From contig OZ245817.1 of NCBI GenBank assembly GCA_965228475.1, positions 3,936,001 to 4,000,000 of the forward strand: DNA of 64,000 bases. The letters are read 5' to 3'. This DNA is from Myxococcota bacterium. GTDB lineage: Bacteria; Myxococcota_A; UBA9160; JAFDDA01. Under the pieces are notes generated by a model. It searched no databases, was not told where the DNA came from, and saw nothing but the letters and a program-made list of their open reading frames with translations. This document shows, in pieces, positions 13,925 to 40,956 of the stretch (its first letter is position 1; every line of letters starts with the position of its first letter). The position numbers were made by a program, and so were the translations under genes.

Positions 13925-15777
13925 CCGGGGAAGAGAGCCCGACCGCCGTCTACGCGGAGCGTCTGGCCCACTGGCACGGCGAAGGCGAGGGCCTGGCCCG
14001 CGTGGCGAGCCTCTTCTCGAACGCGCGCCTCGCGGTCTTCTTCGTCCTCGTCGTCCTGGCCTGGTTCACCCTCGGCGTCCGGACCCTTCACCCGGGCTGG
14101 CTCGCGCCGGCGGCCCTCGGCTTCGTGGCCCTGGTGGTCGGCCACGATCGCGTGCTTCGACGCAAGGAACATGCGGAGCGCGCGGCCCGCTACTACGCGG
14201 CCGGGCTGGCCCGCATCGCCGACCCGCTCGACCCGGCTGGCTCGGGGCCCGACGGTGCGGGCTTCCTCGATGCCGAGCACCCCTACGCCCCGGACCTCGA
14301 CCTGTTCGGCCCGGCTTCGCTGTTCGCCCTGCTCTGCCGCGCCCGCTCGCGCGCCGGGCGCGAGACCCTCGCGGCCTGGCTTTGCGAGCCGGCCGATCCC
14401 GAGACCCTGCGCGAACGGCAGCGCGCCGTCGCCGAACTCGCCCGCGACCTCGACTTCCGCGAGTCCCTGGCGCTGATCGACGTCGGGGGCGACGACGCGG
14501 AGACGGCCTTCGCCGTCGACCGCTTCGTGGCGTTCTGCAAGGCGCCCGCGATCGGCCCCACCCGCTTCCTTCGCATCTTCGGCGCGCTGCTCTCGCTGGC
14601 CTCGGTGCTCGCGCTCGCGGGCGGCGCGGTGGCCTTCGGAACGGGCGCACTCGGGTTCGCTTCTCCGCTGCTCGCGGCCCAGGCCATCTTCTTCGCCTGG
14701 CTCGGCGGGCGGCGGCGCGCGGTCCTCTCCTCCGTCGAAAAAGCCACGGGAGATCTCTCGCCGCTCGCGAAGCTCGTCGAGCGGCTCGAGGACGCGCGCT
14801 TCGAGAGCCCGCTGCTCGTCGCCCTGCGCGATCGGATCGAGACCGGGGGCGTCCCGGCCTCCCGACAGCTCGCGCGCCTGCGCCGGGCCATCGATCTGTG
14901 CGACGCGCGGCGCAACCAGATGTACTGGGTGCCGCCGATCGGGCCGCTGCTCGGCCTCGTCACCCAGGCCGCCCTCTCCATCGAGGCCTGGCGCGCCCGG
15001 GCCGGCGCGGACGCGGCGGACTGGATCCGCGTGATCGGGGAGCTCGAAGCCCTCTCCTGCCTCGCCACCCAGGCCTACGAGCATCCGGCGGATCGCTTTC
15101 CCGAGATCGTGGAGCGCGGCGCCGTCTTCGAGGCCGAGGGGCTCGGCCACCCCCTGCTCGCCGAGGAAGCGAGCATCCGCAACGGCGTGCACCTGTGCGC
15201 CGGCGCCGGGGACGGGGAAGCGGGGAACGAACCGGCCGTCCTGGTCGTTTCGGGCTCGAACATGTCGGGCAAGAGCACGCTGCTTCGCTCCGTCGGCACC
15301 AACGCCGTCCTCGCCCTCGCCGGCGGGCCCGTGCGCGCCACGCGGCTGCGGATCAGCCCGCTCCACGTCGGCGCCTCGATCCGCGTCCAAGACTCCCTGC
15401 GCGAGGGCGCCTCGCGCTTCTACGCGGAGATCCGCCGCATCGCCCAGGTCGTCGAGGCGACCGAGGGCGAGCAGCCCGTCCTGTTCCTGCTCGACGAGAT
15501 CTTCCACGGCACGAACTCGCACGACCGGCGGATCGGGGCCGAGGCGATCGTCCGACGGCTCGTCGCCCAGAACGCGATCGGCCTGGTGACCACCCACGAT
15601 CTCGCGCTCGCCAAACTCGCGGACGGACTCGCTCCCCGCGTCCGCAACGTGCACTTCGAAGATCAGCTCGTCGAAGGCCGCATCCACTTCGACTACCAGA
15701 TGCGGGAAGGCGTGATCACGCGGAGCAACGCGCTCGCCCTGATGCGCGCCGTGGGCCTCGACGTCCCGGACGCCTGA
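13921..15777 (+). CDS. Membrane-anchored MutS-family ATPase (domain V only; not mismatch-repair MutS1)
   Basis: GSNMSGKST Walker A, SRFYAE, LLDEIFHGTNS, VTTHD; hydrophobic N-terminal helices; GTGA overlap with the phosphatase gene. Confidence 0.88.
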   Translation: MTGEESPTAVYAERLAHWHGEGEGLARVASLFSNARLAVFFVLVVLAWFTLGVRTLHPGWLAPAALGFVALVVGHDRVLRRKEHAERAARYYAAGLARIADPLDPAGSGPDGAGFLDAEHPYAPDLDLFGPASLFALLCRARSRAGRETLAAWLCEPADPETLRERQRAVAELARDLDFRESLALIDVGGDDAETAFAVDRFVAFCKAPAIGPTRFLRIFGALLSLASVLALAGGAVAFGTGALGFASPLLAAQAIFFAWLGGRRRAVLSSVEKATGDLSPLAKLVERLEDARFESPLLVALRDRIETGGVPASRQLARLRRAIDLCDARRNQMYWVPPIGPLLGLVTQAALSIEAWRARAGADAADWIRVIGELEALSCLATQAYEHPADRFPEIVERGAVFEAEGLGHPLLAEEASIRNGVHLCAGAGDGEAGNEPAVLVVSGSNMSGKSTLLRSVGTNAVLALAGGPVRATRLRISPLHVGASIRVQDSLREGASRFYAEIRRIAQVVEATEGEQPVLFLLDEIFHGTNSHDRRIGAEAIVRRLVAQNAIGLVTTHDLALAKLADGLAPRVRNVHFEDQLVEGRIHFDYQMREGVITRSNALALMRAVGLDVPDA

Positions 15778-15838
15778 GGGCCACACGCCCGAGAGGCACC
15801 CGGCGCCCTCGCGCGCGCTCTGCTACTCACGCTGTCGC

Positions 15839-16729
15839 ATGAGAGCCTTCACGAAGCCGGCCGCCCTGCTCCTGCTCGGGTCCCTCGTGGCGTGCGCCGG
15901 CTCGCCGCCGCCCCGCTTCGTCCCCTACGACACCCCGCTCTCGTGGGAGGCCCTCGAGCCGGAGAGCGGCGCGCCGGTCTACCTCCTGGGCTCGATCCAC
16001 ATCGGCACGCCGGACATGGGCAAGCTCCATCCGGCGATCCACGAAGCCTACGAACGGTCGAGCGAGCTGGTCGTCGAGGTCGATCTCAACCGGAACCGCG
16101 ACGCCATGGCCGCGATCTACGCGAAGCGGGCCTACCTGCCGCCGGGCGAGCGGCTGCCCGATCGCGTTTCCGCCGAGACCTGGACCCGGCTGCGCGCCTG
16201 GCTCGCCGAACGCGGCCTCGAGACCGAACCCTACACGCGGCTCAAGCCCTGGGCCGTGATGCTGCGGCTCGCGGGCATGCAGTTCGAGGACTCCGGCTTT
16301 CCGACCCGCTACGGCGTCGACCGGCGCTTTCTCTCGAACGCCGGGCCGCGGCCGATCGTCGCCCTCGAGAGCTACGAGCTCCAGCTCGACCTCTACGACG
16401 GATTCCCCGACGACGTCCAGGAGATGATGCTCCGGGACTTCCTCGAACCCGAAGACCCCTACCAGACCCAGGCGCTCGTCGATGCCTGGCGCCAGGGCGA
16501 CGAGCGCACCTTCGTGCGGCTCCTGTTCCCCGAAGCGGACCGCTGGGAGGTCTACCGCGAGCGCTTCTTCTACGAGCGCAACGAGAACATGGCGCGGCGG
16601 ATCACCGAGCTCGCGCGCGACGGGCGCAGCCGCTTCGTCGTGCTCGGCGTGGGCCACATGGTCGGGCCCCGGGGCATCCCGGCCCTGCTCTCGGAGCACG
16701 GCTTCGAGGTCCGGCGCGTCACGCCGTAG
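15839..16729 (+). CDS. TraB/GumN family lipoprotein
   Basis: YLLGSIH, GVD, LES, ERNENM and GVGHM motifs; lipobox LVAC. Confidence 0.88.
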   Translation: MRAFTKPAALLLLGSLVACAGSPPPRFVPYDTPLSWEALEPESGAPVYLLGSIHIGTPDMGKLHPAIHEAYERSSELVVEVDLNRNRDAMAAIYAKRAYLPPGERLPDRVSAETWTRLRAWLAERGLETEPYTRLKPWAVMLRLAGMQFEDSGFPTRYGVDRRFLSNAGPRPIVALESYELQLDLYDGFPDDVQEMMLRDFLEPEDPYQTQALVDAWRQGDERTFVRLLFPEADRWEVYRERFFYERNENMARRITELARDGRSRFVVLGVGHMVGPRGIPALLSEHGFEVRRVTP

Positions 16730-16750
16730 CCGCGCTCCTGCGAGCTCGTC

Positions 16751-17344
16751 CTAGGGAAGACGCGCGATTGCTTCGCCGAAGCGTCCGTAGATGCTCGCCA
16801 GGGCTCGGCCGAACGCATCGACGGTCGCATCCATCGACGCGTCCGCGGCGGCCTCGCGAACCTCGTAGCGCTCGCTCAGCCGGACCTCCCGCGTATCGAG
16901 ATCGCGCAGCGTGAGTTCGACTTCGACGACGGCGCGGGCCGAGCCTCCGCCGGCGACGCGCTCGAAGCGGTAGAGGTACCCGGAGACGCGATGGCGGGCG
17001 TCGGCGCGCACTTCGGGCAGGACCGCGCGCTCCGCGTGGCCGCCCTCGCGCAGGAAGGTGGCGAGGCTCTGCTGCACCAGGGTCGCGGGCGGATCGGACC
17101 AGAAGTGGTAGGCCGACTTCTCGAGCCGGCCCTCGCGGCCGGCATCCGCCGAGACGATGGCCCGGCCGCGCAGGACGGCACTCGCCTCGAGGCGCGAGAC
17201 GACGACGGTTCCGGACAGCGCGGCTTCGCTGCGTTCCGCCGGCGCCGGCACCGCGAGCCGATGGAAGGCATCCCGCGGCGGCGGCGACCCGGCACAGGAA
17301 ACGAGCCCCATCGCCAGGGCGAGCGCTGCGAACCCCCTCGTCAC
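16751..17344 (-). CDS. ABC-transport auxiliary outer-membrane lipoprotein (PqiC-like)
   Basis: Lipobox LVSC, W-x-D-P-P motif; last gene of the MCE operon. Confidence 0.8.
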   Translation of the reverse strand: MTRGFAALALAMGLVSCAGSPPPRDAFHRLAVPAPAERSEAALSGTVVVSRLEASAVLRGRAIVSADAGREGRLEKSAYHFWSDPPATLVQQSLATFLREGGHAERAVLPEVRADARHRVSGYLYRFERVAGGGSARAVVEVELTLRDLDTREVRLSERYEVREAAADASMDATVDAFGRALASIYGRFGEAIARLP

Positions 17345-18255
17345 GGCGAGCCTTCCTCGTCCGCCGAGGCGCCGTTGCCGCGGATCAGCACCGCGGGGTT
17401 GCGCCGCAGCTGGCCGCTGAACTCGTCCATGTTGTGCGAGGCGGATTCGAGGCTCGCCGTGATCTCGTCGATCCGGCTCGCGATGGCCTCGAGGGTGTGC
17501 TCGAGATCCTGGATCATGCGTTCGACGCCGTCAGTGTTGTTCGTCACGAGCCCGTTCACGCTGCCGACCATGCCGTCGACCTGGGAGAGGCTCGACTCGA
17601 GGTGCGTCGTCAGCTCGCCGAGGTTCGCAGAGGCGGCCGAGAGGTTGCCGATCATCGTGTCGATCTCGCCGGTGTTCTCGGTCGAGAAGACCGCCGTCAC
17701 CTGGGCGGTCACGCGTGCGAGGTCCTCGGTCACGACCTCGAGGTTGGCGAGGATCTCGGGCGTCGCCGTGGCCACGGCCGAGAGGAGCGGCCGGATCTCG
17801 TTCTCGAGCAGGCCCTCGACCTCTCCGGTCAGCGTCGCGACGAAGCCGAAGAGCGATTGGAGATCCCGGCCGGCGAACTCCGAGCCGGGCTCGAGGAACG
17901 TCTCGCTCTGTCCCGCGCGGATGTCGACGGTGATCGAAGCCAGCAGGCTCGGCTCGGTGATCCACGCGACCGAGTCCTCGGGGATCCGGGTGCCGCGGTC
18001 CACGGCGAAGGTCACGCGATAGCGGCCCTTCTCGGGGTCTTCGCTCGGCGCGACCTCGACCACCTGGCCGACCCGGTAGCCCTCGAAGAGGAGCTGGGTC
18101 CCGGGCACGACGCCCATCACGTTGTCGTAGTGCGTGTAGTAGGGGTCCGTCGCGCCGGTGCGGCCCGTGAGGATGGCGAGCACCCCGACGAAGACCACGA
18201 TCATCGCCGCCACGAAGGCGCCGACGGCGACGTAGTTCACTCTCGGGCTTCTCAT
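17341..18255 (-). CDS. mlaD: MlaD/MCE domain protein with C-terminal helical region
   Basis: N-terminal TM helix, MCE motif (GVVPGTQLLFEGYRVGQV), long coiled coil ending LRRNPAVLIRG. Confidence 0.88.
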   Translation of the reverse strand: MRSPRVNYVAVGAFVAAMIVVFVGVLAILTGRTGATDPYYTHYDNVMGVVPGTQLLFEGYRVGQVVEVAPSEDPEKGRYRVTFAVDRGTRIPEDSVAWITEPSLLASITVDIRAGQSETFLEPGSEFAGRDLQSLFGFVATLTGEVEGLLENEIRPLLSAVATATPEILANLEVVTEDLARVTAQVTAVFSTENTGEIDTMIGNLSAASANLGELTTHLESSLSQVDGMVGSVNGLVTNNTDGVERMIQDLEHTLEAIASRIDEITASLESASHNMDEFSGQLRRNPAVLIRGNGASADEEGSP

Positions 18256-18271
18256 CGGTGCCAGGCCCGCT

Positions 18272-19096
18272 TCATCGTCTCGCCCCGCTGCCGGTCAGGC
18301 GGCTCAGGTACTCGTTCGGATCCACCTGCTGGGGTTCCGCCCGCCGGTGGATGAGGTTCTGGATGCGCTCGTTCGGACTGTTGCGAATCGCTTCCGGCGA
18401 GTCGACGACGAGGATCTTCCCCCGGTCCAATACGGTGATCCGGTCGGCGATCTTGAACGCGCTTTCAACCTCGTGGGTGACCACCACGATCGTCATGCCG
18501 AGCGCCTCGCGGAGCTTCAGGATCAGGTCGTCGAGCGCCGAGGCCACGACGGGATCGAGCCCGGAGCTCGGCTCGTCGCAGAAGAGGATCTTCGGGTCCA
18601 TGATGATGGCCCGGGCCATGGCGGCCCGCTTCACCATGCCGCCCGAGAGCTCCGAGGGCATCAGGTCCTCGAAGCCCGCGAGATCGACCAGCTCGAGCTT
18701 GAGCCGCATCATGATCTCCATCGTCTTCGGGTCGAGCTCGGCGAGCTCCTCGAGCGGGAGCATGATGTTCTCGCCGACGGTCATCGAGCTGAAGAGCGCG
18801 CCGGTCTGGAAAGCCACGCCCATCTTGCGGCGGAGCGCGGCGCTGCGCTCCGGGTCGAGCCGCGCGATGTCCTCCCCGAGCACGCGGATGCGACCCTCGG
18901 CGGGGATCTCGAGGCCCATCACGTGGCGCAGCAGCGTGCTCTTGCCCGAGCCGCTGCCGCCCATGATGACCATGATCTCCCCGGCCCGGATCTCGAGGCT
19001 CACGCCCTTCAGGATCTCGCGGTCTCCGTAGCGGACGAAGACGTCGGTGGCCTCGATGACCGCACTCGTCTCGATGACCGGACTCGCCTCGCTCAT
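18272..19096 (-). CDS. mlaF: MlaF-type ABC transporter ATP-binding protein
   Basis: GGSGSGKST, PSELSGGMVKR, FCDEPSSGLDP and VVTHE. Confidence 0.92.
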   Translation of the reverse strand: MSEASPVIETSAVIEATDVFVRYGDREILKGVSLEIRAGEIMVIMGGSGSGKSTLLRHVMGLEIPAEGRIRVLGEDIARLDPERSAALRRKMGVAFQTGALFSSMTVGENIMLPLEELAELDPKTMEIMMRLKLELVDLAGFEDLMPSELSGGMVKRAAMARAIIMDPKILFCDEPSSGLDPVVASALDDLILKLREALGMTIVVVTHEVESAFKIADRITVLDRGKILVVDSPEAIRNSPNERIQNLIHRRAEPQQVDPNEYLSRLTGSGARR

Positions 19097-19902
19097 CCGA
19101 GGGTCGTCACCCAGACGAAGAGCATGTCGGTCAGGATGATGGCGGAGATCGCGTGGACGACCGTGCGGGTGGTCCGCTGGCCGACGCCCTCGGCGCCGCC
19201 CGTGACCGAGGCGCCGTTCACCACCGCGATCAGCACGATCAGCACGGCGAAGATCACGGACTTCGTCAGGCCGTGCAGGAAGTCCTCGGTGCGCAGGATC
19301 TCGAAGGTCTGGCTCACGTACACGGCGAGGTCGATGCCGAGCTCGGCCTGGACGTAGAGGCCCGCCGCGAGCTGGGCGATGACCATGCTGAAGAGGGTGA
19401 GCGCCGGCACCATCACGAGGGCCGCGACGAGCGGCGGGACGACCAGGAAGCGAACGGGGTCGACGCCCATCACGCGCAGGGCGTCCACCTCCTGGTTGAT
19501 GGTCATGGTCGCGAGGCGCGCCGCGAGCGCGGAGCCCGAGCGGCCCGCCACGAGGATCCCGGTGATGAGCGGAGCGAACTCGCGCGTCACGCCGAAGGCG
19601 ACCCCGATCACGACCTGAGCTTCGGCGCCGAAGGTGCGCAGCGTGTCGATGCCCTGCAGGGCCAGCATCAGGCCGATGGTCGCCGAGAGCAGCGTGGTGA
19701 TCGGCAGCGCGGCAATGCCGATCTGCATCATCTCCTCGACCGTCGCCGAGAGCCGCACGGGCTGCCCACGGAAGCGGCCGAGGCTCAGGTAGAAGGCGCT
19801 GCGGCCGAGCAGCCAGCCCGCCATGCCGAGCTCTTCGACGCCCTCGGTCGTGCGCCGGCCCACGCGCTCGAGCCACGCCTGGGAGCCCGGGCTAGCCGCC
19901 AT
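19093..19902 (-). CDS. mlaE: MlaE-type ABC transporter permease
   Basis: REFAPLITGILVAGRSGSALAA, EVDALRVMGVDP and GAEGVG motifs. Confidence 0.92.
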   Translation of the reverse strand: MAASPGSQAWLERVGRRTTEGVEELGMAGWLLGRSAFYLSLGRFRGQPVRLSATVEEMMQIGIAALPITTLLSATIGLMLALQGIDTLRTFGAEAQVVIGVAFGVTREFAPLITGILVAGRSGSALAARLATMTINQEVDALRVMGVDPVRFLVVPPLVAALVMVPALTLFSMVIAQLAAGLYVQAELGIDLAVYVSQTFEILRTEDFLHGLTKSVIFAVLIVLIAVVNGASVTGGAEGVGQRTTRTVVHAISAIILTDMLFVWVTTLG

Positions 19903-20242
19903 CGGCGAGCGCTTCGTCGAGGGTTTCGTGGATGGTGAAGACCTGATCGAGGCGGGCGAGCTCGAAGACGCGGAGCGCCCCGGGGCTCACGGCGGCCAGG
20001 GCGAAGCCGGTGCCGCCCTTGCGCGCCTGCTGGAAGGCTTCGACGAGGCTCGCGATGCCCGAGCTGTCGATGTAGGACACCTCGGAGAGATCGACGACGA
20101 CGTCGCGGCGGGCCTCGACGTGGCGCAGCAGCACCTCGCGAGCGGTCGGCGAGTGCTCGAGATCGAACTCCCCGCGGAAGGACACCACACAGGTCGGACC
20201 GACCTCCCGGCTCTCGTGAGCGAACGCGGCGGCCTCGGTCAT
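19892..20242 (-). CDS. STAS-domain anti-sigma-factor antagonist (RsbV/SpoIIAA-like)
   Basis: GEFD...VDLSEVSYIDSSGIASL with the conserved phosphoacceptor Ser; about 116 aa. Confidence 0.9.
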   Translation of the reverse strand: MTEAAAFAHESREVGPTCVVSFRGEFDLEHSPTAREVLLRHVEARRDVVVDLSEVSYIDSSGIASLVEAFQQARKGGTGFALAAVSPGALRVFELARLDQVFTIHETLDEALADGG

Positions 20243-21915
20243 CCCTGGATCCTCTTCTTCATGCGCAGCAGATTGCCCTCGCCGGTCTCCGGCACGCCGT
20301 ATTCCCGCTCGTCCATGAGTTCCTGGATGAAGTGGGTCCCGAGCCCGCCGGGCCGGACGTCCTCGAGCCGCCGCGGGCGGATGCGGCTCGGGTCGACGCG
20401 TTCCGCGAAGTCGCGAAGGTAGACGACGAGGTCGCCGCCGTCGCGGAGGATCGTGAGTTCGATCTCGCCGTCGGCGCCCCGGTAGGCGTGGCGGATCACG
20501 TTCTGGCAGGCCTCGTCGACGGCGAGCACGACGTCCTGGCTGCAGTCGCCGCCGGCTCCGACGGCCCGGCACGCGGCGAGCACGCGGCGGCGCACCTCGC
20601 CCAGGGCCTCGGCCCGGGCGGCGAAGCGGTGGGTCAGGAGCGACTCCTGCGCGGGCGGCTCGGCGGAGACGATCAGCCAGGTGACGTCGTCGCCCGCCCT
20701 GCCCTCGTGGGTCGTTCGCTGCACCAGCTCCGTCAGGCGTTCGCGGATGGGCAGGCTCGCGCACTCGTGGATGGCGCGCTCGATGCCGGCCAGGCCGAGT
20801 TCTTCGCCGGCTTCGTCGCGGACGTCCGTGGCGCCGTCCGTGAAGAGGTAGAGGGCGCCGGACGGGAACGAGAGCGTCACCTCCGGGAAGCCGGCCGGGA
20901 CGGGCCCGATGCCGAGGGGCGGGCCCCCGCTTTCGATGGCTTCGAGCGGCTTGCCCTCGGCCCCGTGGAAGGCCGGCGGGTGGCCGGCCAGGGCCAGGCG
21001 CACGCGGTCGAAGGCGGCGCCTTCCCCGCGCTCGAGACAGCCCACCGCCAGCGTCACGAACATCCCGCGCGTCGCGGTTTCGACGAGCTCCGAGTTCAAG
21101 CGCGCGAGGATCGCCCCCGGCGAGGGCTCCTCCCGCGCGATGCAGCGGAAGAGGCTCGCGGTCTTCGCCATCAGGAGCGCCGCGTTCGTGCCCTTGCCCG
21201 AGACGTCGCCGACGCAGAAGGGGATCCGAGGCCGCTCGCCCCCGCGCAGGTCGAGCCAGTCGTAGAAGTCGCCGGAGACGCCGCGGGCCGGAACGTTGGC
21301 GCCGACGATCGGGAACGGCGCCGGCCTCGGGTCGGGCAGCATGCTGCGCTGGATCTCGGCGGCGAGCTCCACTTCGCGGGCGAGCCGTTCGCGTTCGACC
21401 AGCGCCCGCGCCATGCGCGCGTTGTGCAGGGCGAGCGCCGCCGACGCCGCCAGAGCCGCGAGGAGCTGGCCGTCCTCCTCGGAGAAGAGACCGTCGCCGG
21501 ATTGCTTGTTCACCAGCTCGATGGCCCCGAGGCGCTGGTCGTGGACGCGCAGGGGCGCACACAGGATGGAGCGCGTGGTGAAGCCGGTCTCGGCGTCGAC
21601 GGCGGGCTCCCAGTTCGGGTCTTCGCGGACGTCGCGAACGAGTTCGAGGGAGTCGTCGCGGCAGCAGCGGCCGACGATGCCCTGATCGGCGGCGAGCCGG
21701 AGGCCCGTGATGCGGACCGGGCCGGTGCAGGCGCGGCAGACCAGCACCCGGCCTTCTTCTTCGAACAGGAAGAGCGCGCCGCCCTCCGCCCCGACCTGCT
21801 CGGCGATGCGCTCGACGGCGGCGACGAGCGTCGCCTCGAGCTCACCGGTCGAGGCGAACGAGCTCGAGAGTTCGGCAACGAGGCCGAGCGGGTCGAGGCC
21901 GTCCGGGCGAATCAC
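20239..21915 (-). CDS. GAF - PP2C/SpoIIE phosphatase - HATPase_c (RsbW-like kinase) fusion protein
   Basis: GAF (TRSILCAPL); PP2C (SGDFYD, GDVSGKG, FTDG, DDVT); RsbW-like (AVDEACQNVIRHAY, GGLGTHFI); GTGA overlap at the start. Confidence 0.88.
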   Translation of the reverse strand: MIRPDGLDPLGLVAELSSSFASTGELEATLVAAVERIAEQVGAEGGALFLFEEEGRVLVCRACTGPVRITGLRLAADQGIVGRCCRDDSLELVRDVREDPNWEPAVDAETGFTTRSILCAPLRVHDQRLGAIELVNKQSGDGLFSEEDGQLLAALAASAALALHNARMARALVERERLAREVELAAEIQRSMLPDPRPAPFPIVGANVPARGVSGDFYDWLDLRGGERPRIPFCVGDVSGKGTNAALLMAKTASLFRCIAREEPSPGAILARLNSELVETATRGMFVTLAVGCLERGEGAAFDRVRLALAGHPPAFHGAEGKPLEAIESGGPPLGIGPVPAGFPEVTLSFPSGALYLFTDGATDVRDEAGEELGLAGIERAIHECASLPIRERLTELVQRTTHEGRAGDDVTWLIVSAEPPAQESLLTHRFAARAEALGEVRRRVLAACRAVGAGGDCSQDVVLAVDEACQNVIRHAYRGADGEIELTILRDGGDLVVYLRDFAERVDPSRIRPRRLEDVRPGGLGTHFIQELMDEREYGVPETGEGNLLRMKKRIQG

Positions 21916-23804
21916 GACTCGTCTCCACCCAGGCCGTCTCCACCCAGACCATCCCCACCCAGATGGAGGGCGGCCAGGCTGATGTCGTCGTGGGGTTCGA
22001 TGGCGCCGGCGAAGGCGGCGAGGCGGCGGCGCAGACCGGCGAGCAGATCCGCTGCGCCCTCGCAGGCCAACGCGTCGACGGCGGCGGCGAGCCGCTCGCG
22101 TCCGAACTCCTCGCCCGCGGCGTTGCGCATCTCGGCGGCCCCGTCGGTGGCGAGCACCAGCCAGTCGCCGTCCTCGAGCGAGACTTCCCGGGCCGGGAAC
22201 TCGGCCTCGGGGAGGATCGCCAGCGGCGGTCCGGTCGCGTCGAGCGTGCGCACGGTGCCGTCGGCGCGGCGCAGGAGCGGCGGCTCGTGACCCGCCGAGG
22301 CGTAGACGATCCGCTCCTTGCGCGGCGCGACCACGCCGACGAAGAGCGTCACGAAGCGGCCGCGCTGGACGTCCGCCGCGAGCAGCGCGTTCAACCGCGC
22401 CATCACCGCCGGCAGATCCGTCGACTGCGCGAGCAGGCCGCGCAGGAAGGCGCGGGCCGTCGCCATCACGAGGGCGGCGCCCACGCCGTGGCCCGAGACG
22501 TCGCCGATCACGACGAGCCACTCGCCGGTGGGTTCGCCGTCGGCGCCGAGGCGCGGCCAGAAATCGACGTAGTCGCCGCCGGCGCCCGAGCAGGCCATGG
22601 AGCGCGCCGCGAGCTGGAGGCCGCCCTCGACGTCCTCGGCCCGGACGTCCTCGGGGACGAAGGATTGCTGGATGTCGCGCGCCACGGCGAGCGCCTGGTG
22701 CGCCTCCGCCGCTGCGACGGACTCCTCGCGCAGCTCGGCGTTCCAGATCGCGACGGCCGCCTGATTCGCCACGATCTGCGCGACGAAGAGATCTTCGGGC
22801 CCGAGCTCCTTGCCGTCGGCGCGGTCGTTCAGGTTGAGCACGCCGAGCACCTCCCCCCGCAGCACGAGGGGAACGCACACGGCGCTCTTGTTCCGGTAGT
22901 CGTGGCCGTGGGCGCCGACGCCGGGGACGTCCCCGCGCAGCGTCTCGATGTCTTCGACGAGCAGCGGCTCGGCCGTCTCGGCGCAGTAGCCCGCCACCCC
23001 CTCGCCGAAGGGGATGCGCGTCGTCGCGACGACCTCGCTCGGGATGCCGACGGCGGCCTGCATGCGAAGCACCCGCTCCCCCGGCTCGCGCAGGAGCAGC
23101 GAGCCGCGCCGCGCGCCGAGCAGCGCCGTCGTGTGCTGCACGATCCCTTCGAGGATCTCGTCGAGGCTGCCCGCGCCGGTGAGCGAGTCGGTGACGAGCT
23201 GGATCACCGAGAGCGCGCCGTTGCGCGCTTCGAGCGAGAGCACGTGCTCCTGGAGCGAGGACAGCGTCTCCTGGAGACGCTGGTGTTCCGTCTGGGTGGC
23301 GGTCGCGTCCTCGGCGAGGAGCGCGAGGGCCGCCTGGTTCGCGAGCAGCACCGCCGCCTGCAGATTGCCCTCGTGGAACTCCGCGGGCCCACCGGTTGGG
23401 CCGCGCTTGTTCGAGAGGTTCACGACGCCGAGCACGTCGTCGCGCGCGCGCAGGGGAACGCAGAGCGCCGAAGATCCGGCGTAGACGCTCGCCGAGAGCG
23501 CGGCCCCGCGCGAAGCCGCCGCGTGGGAGAGGAGCCGGGGCGTGCCGCTTGCGGCCACCTCGCCCGCGATCCCGTGCCCCACCAGCACGACCGTGCGCTC
23601 GACCACCCAGGGCGGGAGCCCCCGCGCCGCGCGGATGCGTAGCCGCCCGCGCCCGGCCCGCAGGAGGATCGAGCAGCGCTCGGCACCGGTCGCCGCGCAC
23701 ATTCCCTCGACCACCCCATCGAGGGTCGTCTGTAGATCGCCGCCGTCGATGATCGCCCCGCTGATGCGGGAGAGGTCGTCGACGAGGCGCTTCTCCTCGG
23801 CCAA
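21912..23804 (-). CDS. GAF-GAF-PP2C/SpoIIE (RsbU-like) phosphatase
   Basis: Two GAF repeats (GIAGEVA...ALCVPL and GVAGYCA...AVCVPL); PP2C motifs GGDYVD, GDVSGHG, ATDG, HDDIS; TTG start with GAGGAG RBS is approximate. Confidence 0.88.
   Translation of the reverse strand: MAEEKRLVDDLSRISGAIIDGGDLQTTLDGVVEGMCAATGAERCSILLRAGRGRLRIRAARGLPPWVVERTVVLVGHGIAGEVAASGTPRLLSHAAASRGAALSASVYAGSSALCVPLRARDDVLGVVNLSNKRGPTGGPAEFHEGNLQAAVLLANQAALALLAEDATATQTEHQRLQETLSSLQEHVLSLEARNGALSVIQLVTDSLTGAGSLDEILEGIVQHTTALLGARRGSLLLREPGERVLRMQAAVGIPSEVVATTRIPFGEGVAGYCAETAEPLLVEDIETLRGDVPGVGAHGHDYRNKSAVCVPLVLRGEVLGVLNLNDRADGKELGPEDLFVAQIVANQAAVAIWNAELREESVAAAEAHQALAVARDIQQSFVPEDVRAEDVEGGLQLAARSMACSGAGGDYVDFWPRLGADGEPTGEWLVVIGDVSGHGVGAALVMATARAFLRGLLAQSTDLPAVMARLNALLAADVQRGRFVTLFVGVVAPRKERIVYASAGHEPPLLRRADGTVRTLDATGPPLAILPEAEFPAREVSLEDGDWLVLATDGAAEMRNAAGEEFGRERLAAAVDALACEGAADLLAGLRRRLAAFAGAIEPHDDISLAALHLGGDGLGGDGLGGDES
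21921..21965. repeat. 15-bp tandem repeat x3 encoding (LGGDG)n at the C-terminus of the RsbU-like protein
   Basis: gtctccacccaggcc / gtctccacccagacc / atccccacccagatg. Confidence 0.75.
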
Positions 23805-24015
23805 GGCGGAGGACTCCTCGAGTTGTTGGCATTCTAGGGCCCCTTCCCGTATCGGAACGGCCCCTCGTGCCCAAGAGCCCAAAGCCCGCGATCCGTAGCC
23901 GACAAAACGGCGCAAATCAGGGGACTTCGGCTACGCGGCCGCGCTCGGCTGTGGGTGATGCCCCTCCCTCCAGCGGAGGGAACGGGGAACGAGGCGGGGT
24001 CGGCGTTCGGCGGCC

Positions 24016-25059
24016 CTACACGCTCGCGTAGACGACGGTCTCTTCGCGGTGGATCGTGTGGTGATCGAGCCAGAAGCCGTACTCGGGGTTGATCGCCCGA
24101 ACGAGGCGCGGCAGCGCGTAGAGATCGTCGTGGAGGTGGTAGGCGGAAATGGCGAGGCGCGGCGCGTGCTCGCGCAGGATCCGCGCGGCGCCGGCGATCG
24201 CATCGCGTTCAGCGCCTTCGACGTCCATCTTGATGAAGTCCACCTTCTCGATGCCGCGCTCCGCGACGAAGTCGTCGAGGGCGACGGAGGTGGCCTCGAG
24301 CGAGCCCTTGCCCGAGACGCGCGTGCTCACGCTCGCGTCTTCGTAGCGGAGCGCCTCGCCGCTCTTCGACCAGACGCCGAGGGGCACCTCGACGATCCGG
24401 TCCGCGAGCTCGGGGTTGAGGCCGCGGTTCAGCGCCGAGAGCCGCTGGTTCTCCTCGACGAACTCGAAGACGAACACGCGCCCGGACGGCCCGACCCGGT
24501 TCGCGAAGAGCACGGCCGTGTCGCCGAGCCCGCCGCCGCAGTCGAGCACGGTGTCGCCGGGCTCCGGCTGCACGCGCACGCCGTCGCGTTCGAAGAAGTA
24601 CTGGCGGCCGAAGATCACGTTGGCGAGGAACCCCCGGCGGCAGGCCACCCGGATCCCCTCCTCGACGAGCTCGTAGACGTGGATGGGCTTGGCGCCGCTC
24701 GGGCCGACCTCCCGGGCCACGATCGGCGCCGCCGACCCGGGCTCGCCGATGCGCTCCATGAATCGGGCGAAGCCCGCGCCCCGGTTGCGCGCGTGGCGAA
24801 CCCGGAGATGGCCCAGGCTGTTGAACTGCAGGACGTCGTCGTAGATCTCGCGCGAGCGGTCGTCGACGAACAGGTTGCGGCCCGTCTCGAACTCTTCGAC
24901 GTGATCGAGGATGAAGCGGGTCCACCGCTGGCACGCCGCCAGGTCGACCTGCCCGGGCGACCGGTTCGGGTAGCGGTACTCGGCGAAGTTGTCGCTGTAG
25001 GCGTTGGTCGTGTTCTGGATCAGCCGATCGAGATAGCGGTCCCGGAAGGTCGTCGTCAC
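24016..25059 (-). CDS. FkbM family methyltransferase
   Basis: VLDCGGGLGDT, VFVFE, DFIKMDVEGAE and LAISAYH; GTG start at 25059. Confidence 0.9.
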   Translation of the reverse strand: MTTTFRDRYLDRLIQNTTNAYSDNFAEYRYPNRSPGQVDLAACQRWTRFILDHVEEFETGRNLFVDDRSREIYDDVLQFNSLGHLRVRHARNRGAGFARFMERIGEPGSAAPIVAREVGPSGAKPIHVYELVEEGIRVACRRGFLANVIFGRQYFFERDGVRVQPEPGDTVLDCGGGLGDTAVLFANRVGPSGRVFVFEFVEENQRLSALNRGLNPELADRIVEVPLGVWSKSGEALRYEDASVSTRVSGKGSLEATSVALDDFVAERGIEKVDFIKMDVEGAERDAIAGAARILREHAPRLAISAYHLHDDLYALPRLVRAINPEYGFWLDHHTIHREETVVYASV

Positions 25060-25272
25060 GGTGGCCCCCTGCGGCCCCGATCGGGGCTCAGCGACACGCA
25101 ACGGATCGGCAACCGGGGCCCGCCGGTTGACCCAAAACCGGCCAGCACGCCTCGGGCGACCGCGGCCCGGGCTCGCTCCCGGCTTTCCCGGCGAGGTGCT
25201 ATCCCGACTCCTGGCGCGGTGGCCCTGGGACGAAACGAAGTGAAGGCCTTTCACCACATTCGAATGCCATCC

Positions 25273-25308
25273 TCCGGAAGCGAAACCCCGTCCGGAAGCG
25301 GAACCCCG
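25273..25308. repeat. 18-bp near-perfect tandem duplication immediately upstream of the cyclase start
   Basis: tccggaagcgaaaccccg followed by tccggaagcggaaccccg. Confidence 0.75.
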
Positions 25309-25309
25309 C

Positions 25310-27199
25310 GTGGCGCTGCGCTTCCGTAGCTTCCGCGCGCGGCTGCTCGTGTTCGTCCTGGGCCTGCTCATCCTGGTCCAGGGCGCCGTGCTGCTCGCGG
25401 TGGGGCGGGTGAACGTCGAGGAGGCCCGGCGCCACGTCGACGAGGCCCTGGGCGTCACGGCCGAGACGTTCCGCCGGGAGCTCGCCTCGCGCAACGAGAG
25501 CCTGCTCGAGAAGGCCCAGCTCCTTTCGGCCGACTTCGCCTTCAAGCAGGCCGTGGCCACCGGCGAGGCCGAGACGATCCGCTCGGCCCTCGAGAACCAC
25601 CGCGACCGCGTGATGGCCGACGTGATGATGCTCGTCTCGATGGACGGCCTCTACGCGATCGACACCCTGCACCCCGACCACGCGGTCGGCGAATGTCCCC
25701 TCGAAAAGCCCGTCACCCTCGCCGAGGACAGCGAGTTCGGCGAAGCGGACGCCATCGAGTTCGTCGACGGGAAGCCCTACCAGCTCGTGGTCGTCCCGCT
25801 CTTCACGCCGGAGCCGACGGCGTGGATCCTGATCGGCTTCGCGATCGACGACCGCTTCGCCGCGGCGCTGCGCGAGGTCACCGGGACGCACGTCTCGCTC
25901 CTGCACTGGGAGGCGGAGGGCCTGCCGTTCGCGAGCACGCTCCCCGCGCCCTGGCGCAAGGACGTGCGCGCGGACCGCGTCAACACGCTCGAGCCGGACA
26001 CGAGCCACATCCTCACGATCGGCCGGCAGGAGCACGTCACCTGGGTCGTGCCGGTCGAGAACAGCGGGGGCACGCGCGTGGCTGCGGTCCTGCAGCGCTC
26101 GCTCGCCAAGGCGCTCGAGCCCTACCTGCGGCTGCGCTTCTTCCTGTTCCTGCTGTTCGGTGCGGGGCTCGTGCTCTCGCTCGTCGGCGGGAGCCTGCTC
26201 GCGGCCGGCGTCACGCGGCCGGTCGCGCAGCTCGCCGAGGCCGCCCGGCGCGTCTCCCGCGGCGAGTACGAGGAGAGCGTCGAGCTCGCGAGCCGCGACG
26301 AACTCGGCCTCCTCGCCGACTCCTTCAACGGCATGATGAAGGGCCTCTCGGAGCGCGACCGTGTGCGTGACCTGCTCGGCAAGGTCGTCTCGCCCGAGGT
26401 CGCCGAGGAGCTCCTCTCGCGCGGCATCGAACTCGGCGGCGAGGAGCGCCGCGTCTCGGTGCTCTTCACCGACGTGCGCGACTTCACCTCGATCTCAGAG
26501 CAGAAGTCCGCCCACGAGCTCGTCGACTTCCTGAACCGCTACCTGACCCAGGCGAGCGACGTCGTCGAGCGCAACGGCGGCGTCGTCGACAAGTACATCG
26601 GCGATGCCGTGATGGCGGTCTTCGGCGCGCCGATCGCGGGCGAAGACGATGCGACGCGCGCCGTCCGCAGCGCGCTCGAGATGTCGGCCGCCCTCGCGCG
26701 CAGCGAGGATGGGCTCTCGATCGGCGTCGGCGTGAACACGGACGTCGTCGTCGCCGGCAACATGGGCTCGCAGACGCGGCTCAACTACACGGTGATCGGC
26801 GACGGCGTGAACCTCGCCGCGCGCCTCGAAGGATTGACGAAGCGCTACGGCGTCGGCGTGATCGTCTCCGAGAGCACGCGCGACGCCTGCCCGAGCCTCG
26901 CCTTCCGCGAGCTCGACCGCGTCCGGGTGAAGGGCAAGGAGCGGCCGGTGCGGATCTTCGAGCCCATCGGGCCGGACGAGACCCTGCCCGACGACGTCCG
27001 AGAACGCCTCGAACGGCACGCCGAAGGGCTGGCGCACTTCCAGGCCGGGCGTTTCGACGAGGCCGCGGCCGTCTTCCGCGAGCTCGACCGGCCCGAGGAC
27101 GCCACGCTCTACGCGCTCTACCGCAGCCGCATCGAGCGCTTCGCGAACGAGCCGCCGCCCGCGGACTGGGACGGAATCATCGTCTTCGACGAGAAATGA
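25310..27199 (+). CDS. Membrane class III adenylate cyclase (extracytoplasmic sensor - HAMP - cyclase)
   Basis: Two TM helices; HAMP (RDELGLLADSFN); VLFTDVRDFT, DKYIGDAVMA and YTVIGDGVNLAARLE (Lys/Thr indicate ATP specificity). Confidence 0.92.
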   Translation: MALRFRSFRARLLVFVLGLLILVQGAVLLAVGRVNVEEARRHVDEALGVTAETFRRELASRNESLLEKAQLLSADFAFKQAVATGEAETIRSALENHRDRVMADVMMLVSMDGLYAIDTLHPDHAVGECPLEKPVTLAEDSEFGEADAIEFVDGKPYQLVVVPLFTPEPTAWILIGFAIDDRFAAALREVTGTHVSLLHWEAEGLPFASTLPAPWRKDVRADRVNTLEPDTSHILTIGRQEHVTWVVPVENSGGTRVAAVLQRSLAKALEPYLRLRFFLFLLFGAGLVLSLVGGSLLAAGVTRPVAQLAEAARRVSRGEYEESVELASRDELGLLADSFNGMMKGLSERDRVRDLLGKVVSPEVAEELLSRGIELGGEERRVSVLFTDVRDFTSISEQKSAHELVDFLNRYLTQASDVVERNGGVVDKYIGDAVMAVFGAPIAGEDDATRAVRSALEMSAALARSEDGLSIGVGVNTDVVVAGNMGSQTRLNYTVIGDGVNLAARLEGLTKRYGVGVIVSESTRDACPSLAFRELDRVRVKGKERPVRIFEPIGPDETLPDDVRERLERHAEGLAHFQAGRFDEAAAVFRELDRPEDATLYALYRSRIERFANEPPPADWDGIIVFDEK

Positions 27200-30179: not shown

Positions 30180-30301
30180 GGTGATCTCCTTGCCTTGGGG
30201 GATAGCGGCGACACCGGAGTCTGGCGAGGCGAAACGTCGAAGTTGACAGGGACCTCGGCGACCCGATACTCGGGCCGTCCCGCCGGGATGGAGGCCGATC
30301 G

Positions 30302-30526
30302 GTGAGCTGGGCCCGCGTGAAGTTCTGGTCCGCCCTCGCGTGGATCCTCCTCCTGCTCGTCTTCACGGTGCAAAACACCGAGGTCGTCGAGGTCCGGTTC
30401 CTCTTCTGGAGCCTCGCGATCTCCCGGGCCACCCTGCTGGTCGGCGTGTTCGCGATGGGCCTCGCACTCGGCTGGATCGTGAGCGGACTTCGGCACGGCC
30501 ATCGCGAGGCGAAACAAGAGAAGTGA
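30302..30526 (+). CDS. LapA-family (DUF1049) small membrane protein
   Basis: FTVQNTEVVEVRFLFW between two TM helices; 74 aa. Confidence 0.8.
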   Translation: MSWARVKFWSALAWILLLLVFTVQNTEVVEVRFLFWSLAISRATLLVGVFAMGLALGWIVSGLRHGHREAKQEK

Positions 30527-30536
30527 GGCGGACCCG

Positions 30537-32798
30537 TTGAGCGAATCGCGAAGGACCCGAGCGGGCATACGGATCGCATCGAGCCTGCTGGCGGGGATGC
30601 TCCTGTTCGCTCCGGCCTCGGCCCAGGTCCGCCTCCCCGGAACGGACGCGGGTTCCTCGAGCAAGGAAGAGGCCGCTCCCGTCAGCCCCGAGACGCTCGC
30701 CGAAGAGCGGGCCCGGCTGGCCGAGGCGGTCGAGGCGCTTCGCGCGACCGCCAACGGGGGTGAGGCGGGAACCGCGGCCCGGGAGCGTCTGGCCCTGCTC
30801 GAACGCCTGGACCGGACGCTCGCGGCCCACCAGGAAAGTCTCGAGCGGCTGGCCGAGCAGTCGCGGCCCGATCTGTCGGGAACCAACCTGCTCGGCGGCG
30901 AGCCGCCCTACCCCTTCGCGCTCTACGAAGCGACCAGCCAGGCCCTCGACATCCATCGGCGCCAGCTGCGCCTGCTCGAAGGCCAGGCAAAGTCGCGACG
31001 CGACGAGATCGAGCGCCTGGCCACGCAGGTCGAGATCGCCGAGCGGGACCGCCGCCGGGCCAAGGAGCGCGTCGAGACGGAGGCCGACGTTCTCGCGCGG
31101 GCGGAGTGGACCGAGACCCTGCGACGGCTCGAGATCGAGAGCCGGCTCGCCCAGGCCGAGCTCGCCCGGGTCCGCACCGAGGCCGCTCTCGAAGGCAGCG
31201 AACTCGAGGCCCAGCGGGAGCAGGCCGACCTCCTCGAGGCCACGCTCTCGCAGATCCGATCCCGGCTCGCCGTCACCCGATTCGACCTCGACGAGCCGCT
31301 GAACCGGATCACCCTGCGCGAAGAGAAGGCCAAGGAACAGAGCGAGCGCGCCCGGACGCAGCTCGCGGCAGCCGAGCAACGCCTCGCTGCCCTGCAGGAG
31401 CGCATCGATGGCTTGACCGCCCTGCCCGAGCCGCTCCGGGCGGAGCTCGAGGCGCGGCGCGCGCAGCGCCGCCTGGCCGAGACCCGCATCGCGGTCGCCG
31501 AGTCCCGCCTCGAGCAGCTCTCTCTCGAGCGCACGATCTGGGAGCGCAGGGTCCAGGCGCTGCGGGGCGCTTCCCGGGAAGAGGTCACGGCCTGGGCCGG
31601 CGAAGCGGACCGCGAGCTCGACCGCATGCGGCGGATCGAGCGCCTCGAGGCCACGCACCGCGACGCTCTGGACCAGGAGCTCGGACGGCTGCGGGCGAAC
31701 CTCGAGACCGCGGACGCCGCGAGTCTCCCGTGGGTCCGGGAGGAACTCCAGGCCGTCGAGTCCATGCGCGGTGAGCACGACACTGCCGTCGGCGACGCCG
31801 CAGCGAGCCGCGCGTTTCTCCAGCGCACGATCGCCGACTTCCGGCCGGAGGAGCGGGACCTCGATGCCGGCGCACGGATGCGCTCGCTTGCGACGCGCGC
31901 CCGCGACCTGTGGGATCGGGAACTGTTCGTCGTCGACGACCGTTCGATCACGCTCGGCAAGGTCGCGATCGCCTCGATCCTGTTCATCCTCGGCATCTCC
32001 GCCTCGCGACTCATCTCCCGCCTGATCTGGCGATTGATCTACCGGCGCGCCTTCGAGCCCGGAGCCGCGCTCGCCTTCCAGAGCCTGACGTTCTATGCGC
32101 TCCTGGTCGCCTTCTTCCTGATCGCGCTTCGTACGGTGAACATTCCGCTGACGGCCTTCGCGCTGCTCGGCGGTGCGCTCGCCATCGGCCTGGGTTTCGG
32201 CAGCCAGAACGTGATCGGGAACTTCATCGGCGGCCTGATCCTGCTCGTGGAGCGGCCGATCAAGGTGGGCGACATCGTCGAGGTCGACGGCGTGACGGGC
32301 ATCATCGACCGCGTCGGCCCACGCAGCACCCAGATCCGGACCTTCGACAATCTCCACATCATCGTTCCGAACAGCCTCCTGCTCGAGCAGAAGGTCGTGA
32401 ACTGGAACCTCACGGACGACACCGTTCGGCGTCAGGTGATGGTGGGCGTCGCCTACGACGCGCCCGTCCGGGAGGTCACGAAGCTCATCCGTCGCGCCAT
32501 CGACGAGCACGGCCGAATCCTGAACCAGCCCGAACCACGCATCCTCTTCCACGACTTCGGCGACAGCGCCCTCGTGTTCCGCGCCCTCTTCTGGCTGAAG
32601 ATCGAGACGAACGTCAGCATGATCGAGATCGAGAGCGATCTGCGTCACCGCATCTTCAACCTCTTCAACGAGGCGGGGATCACGATCTCGTTCCCGCAGC
32701 GGGACGTCCACCTCGACGCCACGGGCCCGATCGAGGTACGGATGCTCCCGCCCGACGCGCCGCAGGAGAGCGGCGGGAAGGCCGGGGAAGAGCGCTAG
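30537..32798 (+). CDS. Mechanosensitive channel of small conductance with large periplasmic coiled coil (MscK-like)
   Basis: Signal peptide, long coiled coil, GLGFGSQNVIGNFIGG, ERPIKVGD, IIVPNS and GITISFPQRDVH. Confidence 0.92.
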   Translation: MSESRRTRAGIRIASSLLAGMLLFAPASAQVRLPGTDAGSSSKEEAAPVSPETLAEERARLAEAVEALRATANGGEAGTAARERLALLERLDRTLAAHQESLERLAEQSRPDLSGTNLLGGEPPYPFALYEATSQALDIHRRQLRLLEGQAKSRRDEIERLATQVEIAERDRRRAKERVETEADVLARAEWTETLRRLEIESRLAQAELARVRTEAALEGSELEAQREQADLLEATLSQIRSRLAVTRFDLDEPLNRITLREEKAKEQSERARTQLAAAEQRLAALQERIDGLTALPEPLRAELEARRAQRRLAETRIAVAESRLEQLSLERTIWERRVQALRGASREEVTAWAGEADRELDRMRRIERLEATHRDALDQELGRLRANLETADAASLPWVREELQAVESMRGEHDTAVGDAAASRAFLQRTIADFRPEERDLDAGARMRSLATRARDLWDRELFVVDDRSITLGKVAIASILFILGISASRLISRLIWRLIYRRAFEPGAALAFQSLTFYALLVAFFLIALRTVNIPLTAFALLGGALAIGLGFGSQNVIGNFIGGLILLVERPIKVGDIVEVDGVTGIIDRVGPRSTQIRTFDNLHIIVPNSLLLEQKVVNWNLTDDTVRRQVMVGVAYDAPVREVTKLIRRAIDEHGRILNQPEPRILFHDFGDSALVFRALFWLKIETNVSMIEIESDLRHRIFNLFNEAGITISFPQRDVHLDATGPIEVRMLPPDAPQESGGKAGEER

Positions 32799-38037: not shown

Positions 38038-38127
38038 GGAACGGCTCCGGGCGCCCGGCTCGGCGGGTCGCCCAACCTTACGCGAAACCACGGATTTTTG
38101 AGCCGGAACCTGGGTCCTGGGCGTCGG

Positions 38128-38163
38128 TTGACGATCATAGTCATCACTCTTATAGTAGTGACT
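38128..38163 (+). promoter_or_regulatory. Sigma70-type promoter with overlapping inverted repeat upstream of the merR-men operon
   Basis: TTGACG, 17 nt, TATAGT; imperfect inverted repeat AGTCATCACT-CTTAT-AGTAGTGACT at 38139-38163. Confidence 0.7.
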
Positions 38164-38166
38164 CTC

Positions 38167-40954: not shown

Positions 40955-40956
40955 GC

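Follow-up and report, generated by a model that had tools for sequence, protein, structure and literature searches.

The stretch of DNA considered here, a 64-kb window (64,000 nt, about 72% G+C across its length) of contig OZ245817.1 from a Myxococcota bacterium, carries between positions 16751 and 23804 seven minus-strand genes whose junctions overlap or nearly abut. The locus is one operon in two halves: a phosphorylation switch, and a lipid transporter of the Mpc (Mla-Pqi chimeric) type. The reading we favor, at a probability of roughly 0.62 and on evidence that is computational throughout, is that the switch operon supplies a phosphorylation-switchable equivalent of MlaB, which would gate the Mpc transporter via its ATPase, MlaF.

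A seven-gene operon in two halves

In order of transcription, the operon comprises:

21912-23804, minus strand: gene A, a GAF-GAF-PP2C (SpoIIE-family) serine phosphatase (Pfam SpoIIE, 5e-50, and two GAF stretches)
20239-21915, minus strand: gene B, a GAF-PP2C-RsbW-like kinase protein (Pfam GAF; SpoIIE, 1e-33; HATPase_c_2, 7e-26)
19892-20242, minus strand: STAS protein of 116 aa (Pfam PF01740, 1e-21)
19093-19902, minus strand: MlaE-family ATP-binding cassette (ABC) permease of 269 aa (Pfam PF02405, 1e-64)
18272-19096, minus strand: MlaF-type ABC ATPase of 274 aa (Pfam ABC_tran)
17341-18255, minus strand: long MlaD/MCE protein of 304 aa (Pfam PF02470, 1e-10)
16751-17344, minus strand: PqiC-like outer-membrane lipoprotein (Pfam ABC_trans_aux PF03886, 2.5e-14)

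Genes A and B overlap by 4 nt (GTGA), as do the MlaD and lipoprotein genes; the B/STAS and MlaE/MlaF junctions are likewise 4-nt overlaps (ATGA), STAS and MlaE overlap by 11 nt, and a gap of 16 nt separates MlaF from MlaD. The start of gene A is uncertain, in that the TTG at 23804 was used and those at 23882 and 23915 are also open. Gene models, junctions and Pfam matches bear out an earlier note on this DNA, which had recognized a seven-gene minus-strand operon with these domains. They bear out equally its statement that the window encodes no sigma factor: Pfam detected no sigma-70 or sigma-54 domain in the 139 open reading frames (ORFs) scanned, namely all those of at least 90 aa with stretches rich in G+C at third codon positions (GC3). 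A consensus scan of 16300-25800 found neither a sigma-70-like promoter nor an intrinsic terminator, a result that is uninformative at 72% G+C.

The operon was set against its relatives by a genome scan seeded with 23 homologues of B (alignment A1), which yielded at least 553 confirmed relatives among 600 candidate stretches. The best 80 were analysed, and the loci were compared by tblastn with the seven window proteins. Their labels cover Rhodospirillales and Hyphomicrobiales, Gamma- and Betaproteobacteria, and Myxococcota and Deltaproteobacteria, together with two "Spirochaetales" and one "Planctomycetota".

The switch half

Gene B is the predicted conserved switch enzyme, uniting phosphatase and kinase in one protein. 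It has at least 120 full-length homologues at 49-74% identity, and its AlphaFold2 (AF2) model (predicted local distance difference test, pLDDT, 86.3) finds its best fold match in the RsbU and RsbW domains of Rv1364c (3ke6, E 1e-18). PP2C aspartate motifs can be read from the translations of both A and B, and in B the residues D216, D237, D360, D409 and D410 are invariant across the 23 homologues of A1, as expected of a PP2C/SpoIIE-family phosphatase with its metal-binding aspartates. The kinase domain aligns to RsbW (6m36_A) at 7.5e-7, and the NCBIfam RsbW models score below cut-off. Its N-box reads DEACQNVIRHAY in the translation; across 76 sequences the E/N of the N-box and the GGLG of the G2 box are at least 90% conserved, and the G1 box is D-x-A throughout the family (D-F-A in the window), not D-x-G-x-G. 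Of the motifs that the earlier note called intact, the PP2C aspartates, the N-box and the YIDSSG of the STAS protein are all present; the one qualification concerns the kinase G1 box.

The enzyme is a single ORF in 39 loci, and in 36 it is split into two ORFs in different frames, a GAF-PP2C protein plus an RsbW-like ORF of about 140 aa. A maximum-likelihood tree built quickly from the GAF-PP2C part (81 rows) requires at least nine fusion or fission changes. The genes for kinase, phosphatase and STAS always lie next to each other or are fused. A plasmid collection searched by tblastn with B returned only distant PP2C-kinase proteins, at no more than 34% identity, and no orthologous operon.

Gene A is predicted to be a lineage-specific accessory phosphatase outside the conserved system. 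An A-like gene lies upstream of B in only one of the 80 loci (L006, 53% identity), beside which the window falls on a long branch of the GAF-PP2C tree; other extra PP2C genes were seen in L026, L062, L036 and L047. Inclusion of gene A in the conserved system was rejected on its presence in 1 of 80 loci. The proposal that three GAF sensors gate transport needs correcting, in that only the one GAF in B is conserved and the other two belong to gene A.

The upstream neighbors of B vary (PhaC, sulfite reductase/DUF934, Nth/DUF1841 or a cyclase), so the conserved unit starts at B, and an extension of that unit upstream was rejected on the same grounds. A gene for PhaC, a polyhydroxyalkanoate synthase, occurs on the same strand next to B on its upstream side, or with one gene between them, in 14 Rhodospirillales-labelled loci (L007, L008, L014, L020, L021, L023, L024, L025, L032, L037, L039, L040, L042 and L046).

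The STAS protein carries the motif YIDSSG, in which Ser60 is the putative phospho-acceptor, and D59, S60, S61 and G62 are invariant in 55 sequences; it is thus a STAS-only protein with the conserved phosphorylatable serine (DSxG) of an antagonist. It passes the NCBIfam model TIGR00377 (79.3 bits against a cut-off of 53.45) and aligns with the phospho-serine region of TM1442 and RsbV. Among solved structures its profile matches TM1442 at 2e-23, and Foldseek places TM1442, RsbV and SpoIIAA first for its AF2 model (pLDDT 91.9; template modelling, TM, scores 0.81-0.87). Sequence and predicted fold concur that this is an antagonist of the RsbV/SpoIIAA type and not a member of the MlaB family. None of the loci yielded a further STAS gene in tblastn with the window STAS. 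Taken together, the switch is by its domains and motifs a partner-switching module from which one customary feature, a cognate sigma factor encoded alongside, is missing: in addition to the window, 58 downstream and 74 upstream neighbor ORFs at related loci were scanned and contained no sigma-70 or sigma-54 domain.

The transporter half

In Brucella, the Mpc system consists of MlaE, MlaF, a long MlaD and a PqiC-like lipoprotein, with no MlaC, according to the sections of PMC12436622 that describe it. The window has the same architecture, MlaE plus MlaF plus a 304-aa MlaD plus a PF03886 lipoprotein, and Pfam detected neither an MlaC nor an MlaA domain among the genes of the operon. The last four genes accordingly encode a predicted envelope-spanning lipid transporter of Mpc type. 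MlaE reaches 206.7 bits against the 212.2-bit cut-off of NCBIfam TIGR00056 and consists of the MlaE domain only, with no fused STAS. The best NCBIfam match of MlaF is the MlaF model PRK11831, below cut-off, and its best solved relatives are the MlaF proteins of A. baumannii, P. aeruginosa and E. coli, plus MceG; a C-terminal tail, ..EYLxRLTG, is specific to the family, with Y263, R266 and L267 conserved. MlaD has an N-terminal membrane helix, an MCE domain (Pfam MlaD, 37-114) and a long helical C-terminal part (Mce4_CUP1-like, 164-282), the last presumed to form a periplasm-spanning needle. The lipoprotein carries a lipobox (..LVSC..).

Known Mpc systems also offer a fusion precedent for joining a STAS domain to this kind of transporter. 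Brucella MpcE is described in PMC12436622 as an MlaE with an N-terminal STAS "homologous to MlaB". A replicon of Azospirillum thermophilum (L081) likewise encodes a 383-aa MlaE whose residues 24-101 match STAS_2, and after it come genes for an ATPase, an MlaD-family protein and an auxiliary lipoprotein; this fused form was recovered from the plasmid collection by tblastn with MlaE, a search whose matches were at most 39% identical. The fused Azospirillum STAS has LDTVG, with threonine, at the phospho-site position, BLASTP of the window STAS against it gave no significant match, and the accompanying MlaF is 44% identical to that of the window and has a different tail.

Fusions were sought within the STAS subfamily of the window as well. 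A search among longer proteins turned up three proteins that fuse kinase and STAS, plus an MlaE of 300 aa that matched STAS in part, and no clear STAS-MlaE fusion. Run against 1.84 billion representatives, the STAS profile gave 58 matches at E <= 1e-30; the 14 longer profile matches checked were tandem STAS proteins, kinase+STAS proteins or STAS domains on TLC/MFS-like transporters, and none was a STAS on MlaE. As a separate observation, the TLC/MFS-like membrane transporters with a close STAS relative at the C-terminus (P0169, P0197, P0237 and P0254, 830-844 aa) represent another pairing of STAS and transporter.

Conservation of the linkage

The two halves have remained together across much of the family. 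Where at least 450 nt follow B, STAS comes directly after it in 73 of 74 loci, L063 being the exception. Eight of the 80 loci end too early to test for MlaE; in 62 of the remaining 72 an MlaE gene follows STAS, with STAS-MlaE-MlaF-MlaD in the window order in 60, a canonical Mla set in two and none in ten. The earlier expectation that the halves would be linked in relatives thus holds for these 62 and not for the ten. In the 60 loci that keep the window order, MlaE is 50-70% identical to that of the window. Of 60 loci whose downstream DNA extends for 4 kb or more, 46 contain all five genes from STAS to the lipoprotein, the gene for the latter being last. Among 58 gene-model pairs STAS and MlaE overlap in 20 and are separated by 0-20 nt in 27. 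Linkage to the transporter is spread over the whole GAF-PP2C tree, on which at least six state changes are required. An arrangement that recurs in dozens of distant genomes is far beyond chance.

Two loci present an illustration of which component the switch retains when the transporter changes. In L026 (10001-15610) and L043 (10001-15639) the order is B-STAS-MlaE-(short MlaD)-MlaA-MlaC, plus a convergent MlaF and no mlaB. Their MlaE proteins are only 32% and 29% identical to that of the window and lie far outside its family. Their MlaF proteins are 61% and 59% identical to the window protein, share its C-terminal tail and are nested inside its family. MlaF of the window family thus stayed with the switch through a replacement of MlaE and MlaD. 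Closely related to these two loci is L062, whose contig ends too early.

MlaF as the partner of STAS

The STAS-MlaF pairing was modelled as a complex. The score was 0.80 (median of three runs), against 0.00 for the best of three controls; among 157 solved complexes 116 reach the mark used, as do 2 among 215 mismatched pairs, and these counts are only approximate here, the alignments (A3, A2) being custom ones. Contact agreement between the runs is at least 92%, and partner pLDDT at least 85. On the STAS side the modelled interface comprises residues 27-35, 59-68 and 91-97, including D59, S60, S61 and helix 63-68; on the MlaF side it lies on the helical subdomain, at 119-136, 165-167 and 194-199. 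The putative phospho-acceptor sits within it, S60 touching MlaF residues 129-133 and 165-167. The model supports, but stops short of showing, binding of STAS to MlaF.

The placement of S60 parallels what is described for E. coli. There, Thr52 of MlaB lies at the MlaF interface and T52E weakens binding; the same account (PMC7367683), in the passages that treat this residue, poses phosphorylation of MlaB as a question and names no kinase.

Co-variation across the 46 complete loci, an exploratory analysis by partial correlation of distance matrices, points to the same pair. STAS and MlaF give a partial correlation of 0.40 (bootstrap 0.24-0.58), which is the largest for STAS in 68% of resamples and the largest for MlaF in 91%. 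The other values for STAS are 0.29 with the kinase, 0.28 with GAF-PP2C, 0.02 with MlaE and -0.16 with MlaD; a known contact, MlaE-MlaD, gives 0.53. Five independent computational lines, namely synteny, component swap, fusion precedent, complex model and co-variation, hence support the suggestion, made in the earlier note, that the STAS protein acts as a phosphorylation-switchable MlaB gating an MCE transporter.

Input to the switch

By sequence search, the best solved relatives of the B GAF are PDE5 GAF-A (3e-17), PDE10, PDE2, CyaB2 and Lcd1 with cAMP, and the GAF part of the AF2 model matches PDE5A, CyaB2, Lcd1-cAMP, PDE2A and PDE10A. Within it the motif NK..F...D is conserved, N136, K137, F144 and D148 being invariant in the 23 homologues of A1, and NKFDE is a signature of cyclic-nucleotide-binding GAFs. 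A cyclic nucleotide is a plausible ligand of the B GAF on these resemblances.

Class III cyclase domains occur in 15 of the 80 loci and in several arrangements directly flank the operon: directly upstream on the same strand (L013, L016, L017 and L018), directly after STAS (L044, L054 and L065) or directly after the lipoprotein gene (L060, L064, L070 and L078). The window has one too:

25310-27199, plus strand: dCache-HAMP-class III nucleotide cyclase, divergent from the operon (Pfam)

This cyclase is a candidate associate of the operon and a possible source of the GAF ligand.

Proposed mechanism

In the mechanism that we propose, unphosphorylated STAS would dock, in the manner of E. coli MlaB, on the MlaF helical subdomain and once docked would permit assembly of the transporter or its ATPase activity, which we infer to be the active state. 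The kinase domain of B would phosphorylate Ser60, in the middle of the predicted interface, such that STAS is released and transport is switched off. The PP2C domains of B, and in the lineage of the window also of A, would reverse this phosphorylation. The balance between kinase and phosphatase would be set by the B GAF, probably through binding of a cyclic nucleotide from a neighboring class III cyclase.

Weighing the proposal

A number of observations weigh against this mechanism. All 80 loci come from metagenome-assembled genomes, and taxonomic labels may be wrong. The STAS protein fails the MlaB model NF033618 (22.7 bits against a cut-off of 90), its profile reaches MlaB chains only at E 1e-4 over 48 residues, and Foldseek ranks MlaB 38th, at a TM score of 0.56; as a member of the MlaB family proper it must be given up, on sequence and on fold rank alike. 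Since MlaF-MlaB complexes have already been solved, the favorable STAS-MlaF score may reflect likeness to them, and unrelated proteins, rather than other STAS paralogues, served as controls. Conservation of the modelled STAS face (0.92, against 0.65 overall) does not discriminate, because the same face binds the kinase in SpoIIAA and RsbV. The co-variation analysis leaves some shared ancestry in, and the fifth residue (E) of the NKFDE motif is not kept in the B GAF. With the atypical D-x-A G1 box, moreover, kinase activity of B is not assured. Finally, the switch lacks an adjacent MlaE in the ten loci noted above, eight of which belong to a gammaproteobacterial lineage. There the frame is Nth-DUF1841-switch-(Mpc)-CHASE2 cyclase-FHA-PP2C-CHASE2 Hanks kinase, and in L044, L051, L054, L056, L058, L065, L066 and L077 the four Mpc genes are cleanly missing from it, the frame being otherwise conserved with seven sister loci that have them (L048, L055, L059, L060, L064, L070 and L078). 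The switch can evidently persist without an adjacent transporter.

The strongest competitor, unlikely in our estimation, is a conventional partner switch whose true output is a sigma or anti-sigma factor, or some other regulator, encoded elsewhere, with the transporter genes simply sharing its transcript, for example within a response to envelope stress. HsbA and FlgM provide a precedent for a partner switch acting on a regulator encoded elsewhere. Because the STAS protein is of the classical anti-sigma antagonist type, RsbV/SpoIIAA-like, such a partner elsewhere is possible; the kinase is RsbW-like and, in 36 loci, free-standing in the manner of an anti-sigma factor, and the loci without an adjacent transporter fit as well. 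Against this account speaks the company that the switch keeps: no sigma domain appears in the window or in the scanned neighbor ORFs, MlaE and MlaF are linked to the switch in 62 of 72 loci from distant lineages and through overlapping junctions, MlaF stays behind when MlaE and MlaD are swapped, and the complex model supports binding of STAS to MlaF.

The gammaproteobacterial frame invites another explanation, which we consider improbable, that the switch mainly serves a cyclic-nucleotide/Hanks-kinase node (CHASE2 cyclase, FHA, PP2C and CHASE2 Ser/Thr kinase) with the transporter as an optional client. Conservation of the frame with or without the transporter speaks for such a node, as do the cyclase domains in 15 of 80 loci. 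The frame is restricted to one part of the tree, however, and the alpha- and betaproteobacterial and Myxococcota-labelled loci, as well as the window, keep the transporter without the FHA/kinase cluster.

A little less probable still is that STAS is a constitutive structural subunit, never phosphorylated, with the PP2C and kinase acting elsewhere or a pseudo-kinase sequestering STAS. The D-x-A G1 box could be accommodated in this way, as could the threonine that takes the place of DSSG in fused STAS-MlaE forms. Against it, DSSG is invariant in 55 sequences, the catalytic PP2C aspartates are invariant, the N-box and G2 box of the kinase are at least 90% conserved in 76 sequences, and kinase, phosphatase and STAS keep together throughout, as neighbors or as fusions. 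That the transporter imports the ligand sensed by the GAF domains, as the earlier note had offered in the alternative, can be set aside as very improbable, for co-location is all that speaks for it, the B GAF most resembles cytoplasmic cyclic-nucleotide sensors, cyclases recur beside the operon, and MCE/Mpc systems are described in PMC12436622, where it treats transport, as moving phospholipids between membranes and not into the cytoplasm.

Comparison with known systems

The switch half has several counterparts among partner switches. Rv1364c of Mycobacterium tuberculosis (3ke6), like gene B, places an RsbW-like kinase domain after a PP2C domain within a single chain; its sensor is a PAS domain, its STAS is fused, and it is linked to SigF, whereas the window operon has a GAF sensor, a separate STAS and transporter genes as neighbors. 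In Pseudomonas, the kinase and phosphatase protein HsbR acts on the STAS-only protein HsbA, with a target that is not a sigma factor. Vibrio fischeri SypE likewise combines an RsbW-like kinase and a PP2C in one protein and sets phosphorylation of the STAS-only SypA, again with a non-sigma target; as described in the relevant sections of PMC8256260, SypE differs from B in having a receiver domain in place of the GAF and another domain order, and SypE/SypA are not linked to an ABC transporter. Small switch proteins phosphorylated on Ser/Thr also control non-sigma effectors post-translationally in Pseudomonas SiaABC and the Anabaena HenR/STAS-glycosyltransferase system, where, in the accounts drawn on here, the effector is a diguanylate cyclase or a glycosyltransferase; the effector proposed for the window is an ABC transporter ATPase.

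A close parallel for the output is E. coli MlaB-MlaF, in which a small STAS protein is likewise encoded in one operon with mlaF and mlaE. Like MlaB, the window STAS is seated by the model on the MlaF helical subdomain, where the residue corresponding to the SpoIIAA phospho-site (Ser60; Thr52 in MlaB) falls in the interface. Unlike MlaB, for which the pertinent passages of PMC7367683 give no known kinase, it has a canonical DSSG plus a kinase and phosphatases of its own. The operon departs from E. coli Mla also in that the STAS gene precedes mlaE, rather than lying at the operon end, and in the lack of MlaC and MlaA. With MpcEFDA of Brucella abortus it shares the four transporter parts, MlaD being 331 aa there and 304 aa here and the window lipoprotein corresponding to MpcA; the STAS that is MlaB-like and fused to the MlaE N-terminus in that system is here a separate RsbV-like gene accompanied by kinase and phosphatase (PMC12436622). 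The parts of PMC12436622 on Mpc describe no regulator of the Brucella system, and no search for a kinase or phosphatase was made there. More broadly, no description of a partner-switching kinase/phosphatase joined with Mla or MCE was found in the open-access literature and bioRxiv, and the words "kinase" and "phosphatase" do not occur in the Mla phylogenomics paper PMC10665443.

Other genes in the window

Gene A is immediately preceded by one further gene of the same orientation, divergent from the dCache-HAMP cyclase:

24016-c.25200, minus strand: FkbM-type methyltransferase (Pfam)

On the other side, a TraB/PrgY/GumN-family gene with a lipobox-like N-terminus (15743-16729, plus strand) is convergent with the operon, stopping 21 nt short of its last gene. 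Further away, 35293-39027 (minus strand) encodes a 1244-aa MMPL/RND-type (sterol-sensing/Patched-like) membrane transporter with a C-terminal cyclic-nucleotide-binding domain (PF00027, 2.7e-16); this is a second envelope lipid-type transporter in the window, and it looks to be regulated by cyclic nucleotide monophosphates (cNMPs). The window also holds a gene for a small LapA-domain protein followed by one for a 771-aa MscS-family channel (30206-32798, plus strand), and a menaquinone-biosynthesis-like run at 38800-47000 (plus strand) of a chorismate-binding enzyme, a thiamine pyrophosphate (TPP) enzyme, a UbiA prenyltransferase, an enolase-superfamily enzyme and an AMP-binding ligase.

Implications

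How lipid transporters of the MCE/Mla type are regulated is largely unknown, and this operon family is a natural system in which to address the question. Because the STAS protein comes with its own kinase, phosphatase and sensor, phospho-regulation of the MlaB kind becomes directly testable with purified proteins. We advance only tentatively, at somewhat under even odds, the broader suggestion that the family embodies a widespread and previously undescribed form of regulation, in which a cNMP-sensing kinase/phosphatase writes and erases phosphate on an RsbV-like STAS protein whose partner is the MlaF ATPase. Were the proposal to prove true, B and its relatives would give an MlaB-like subunit its first natural kinase/phosphatase pair, and partner switching would have been turned from controlling transcription to acting directly on an ABC transporter ATPase, a new class of output. 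It would also link second-messenger signaling to outer-membrane lipid homeostasis in many Proteobacteria and their relatives.

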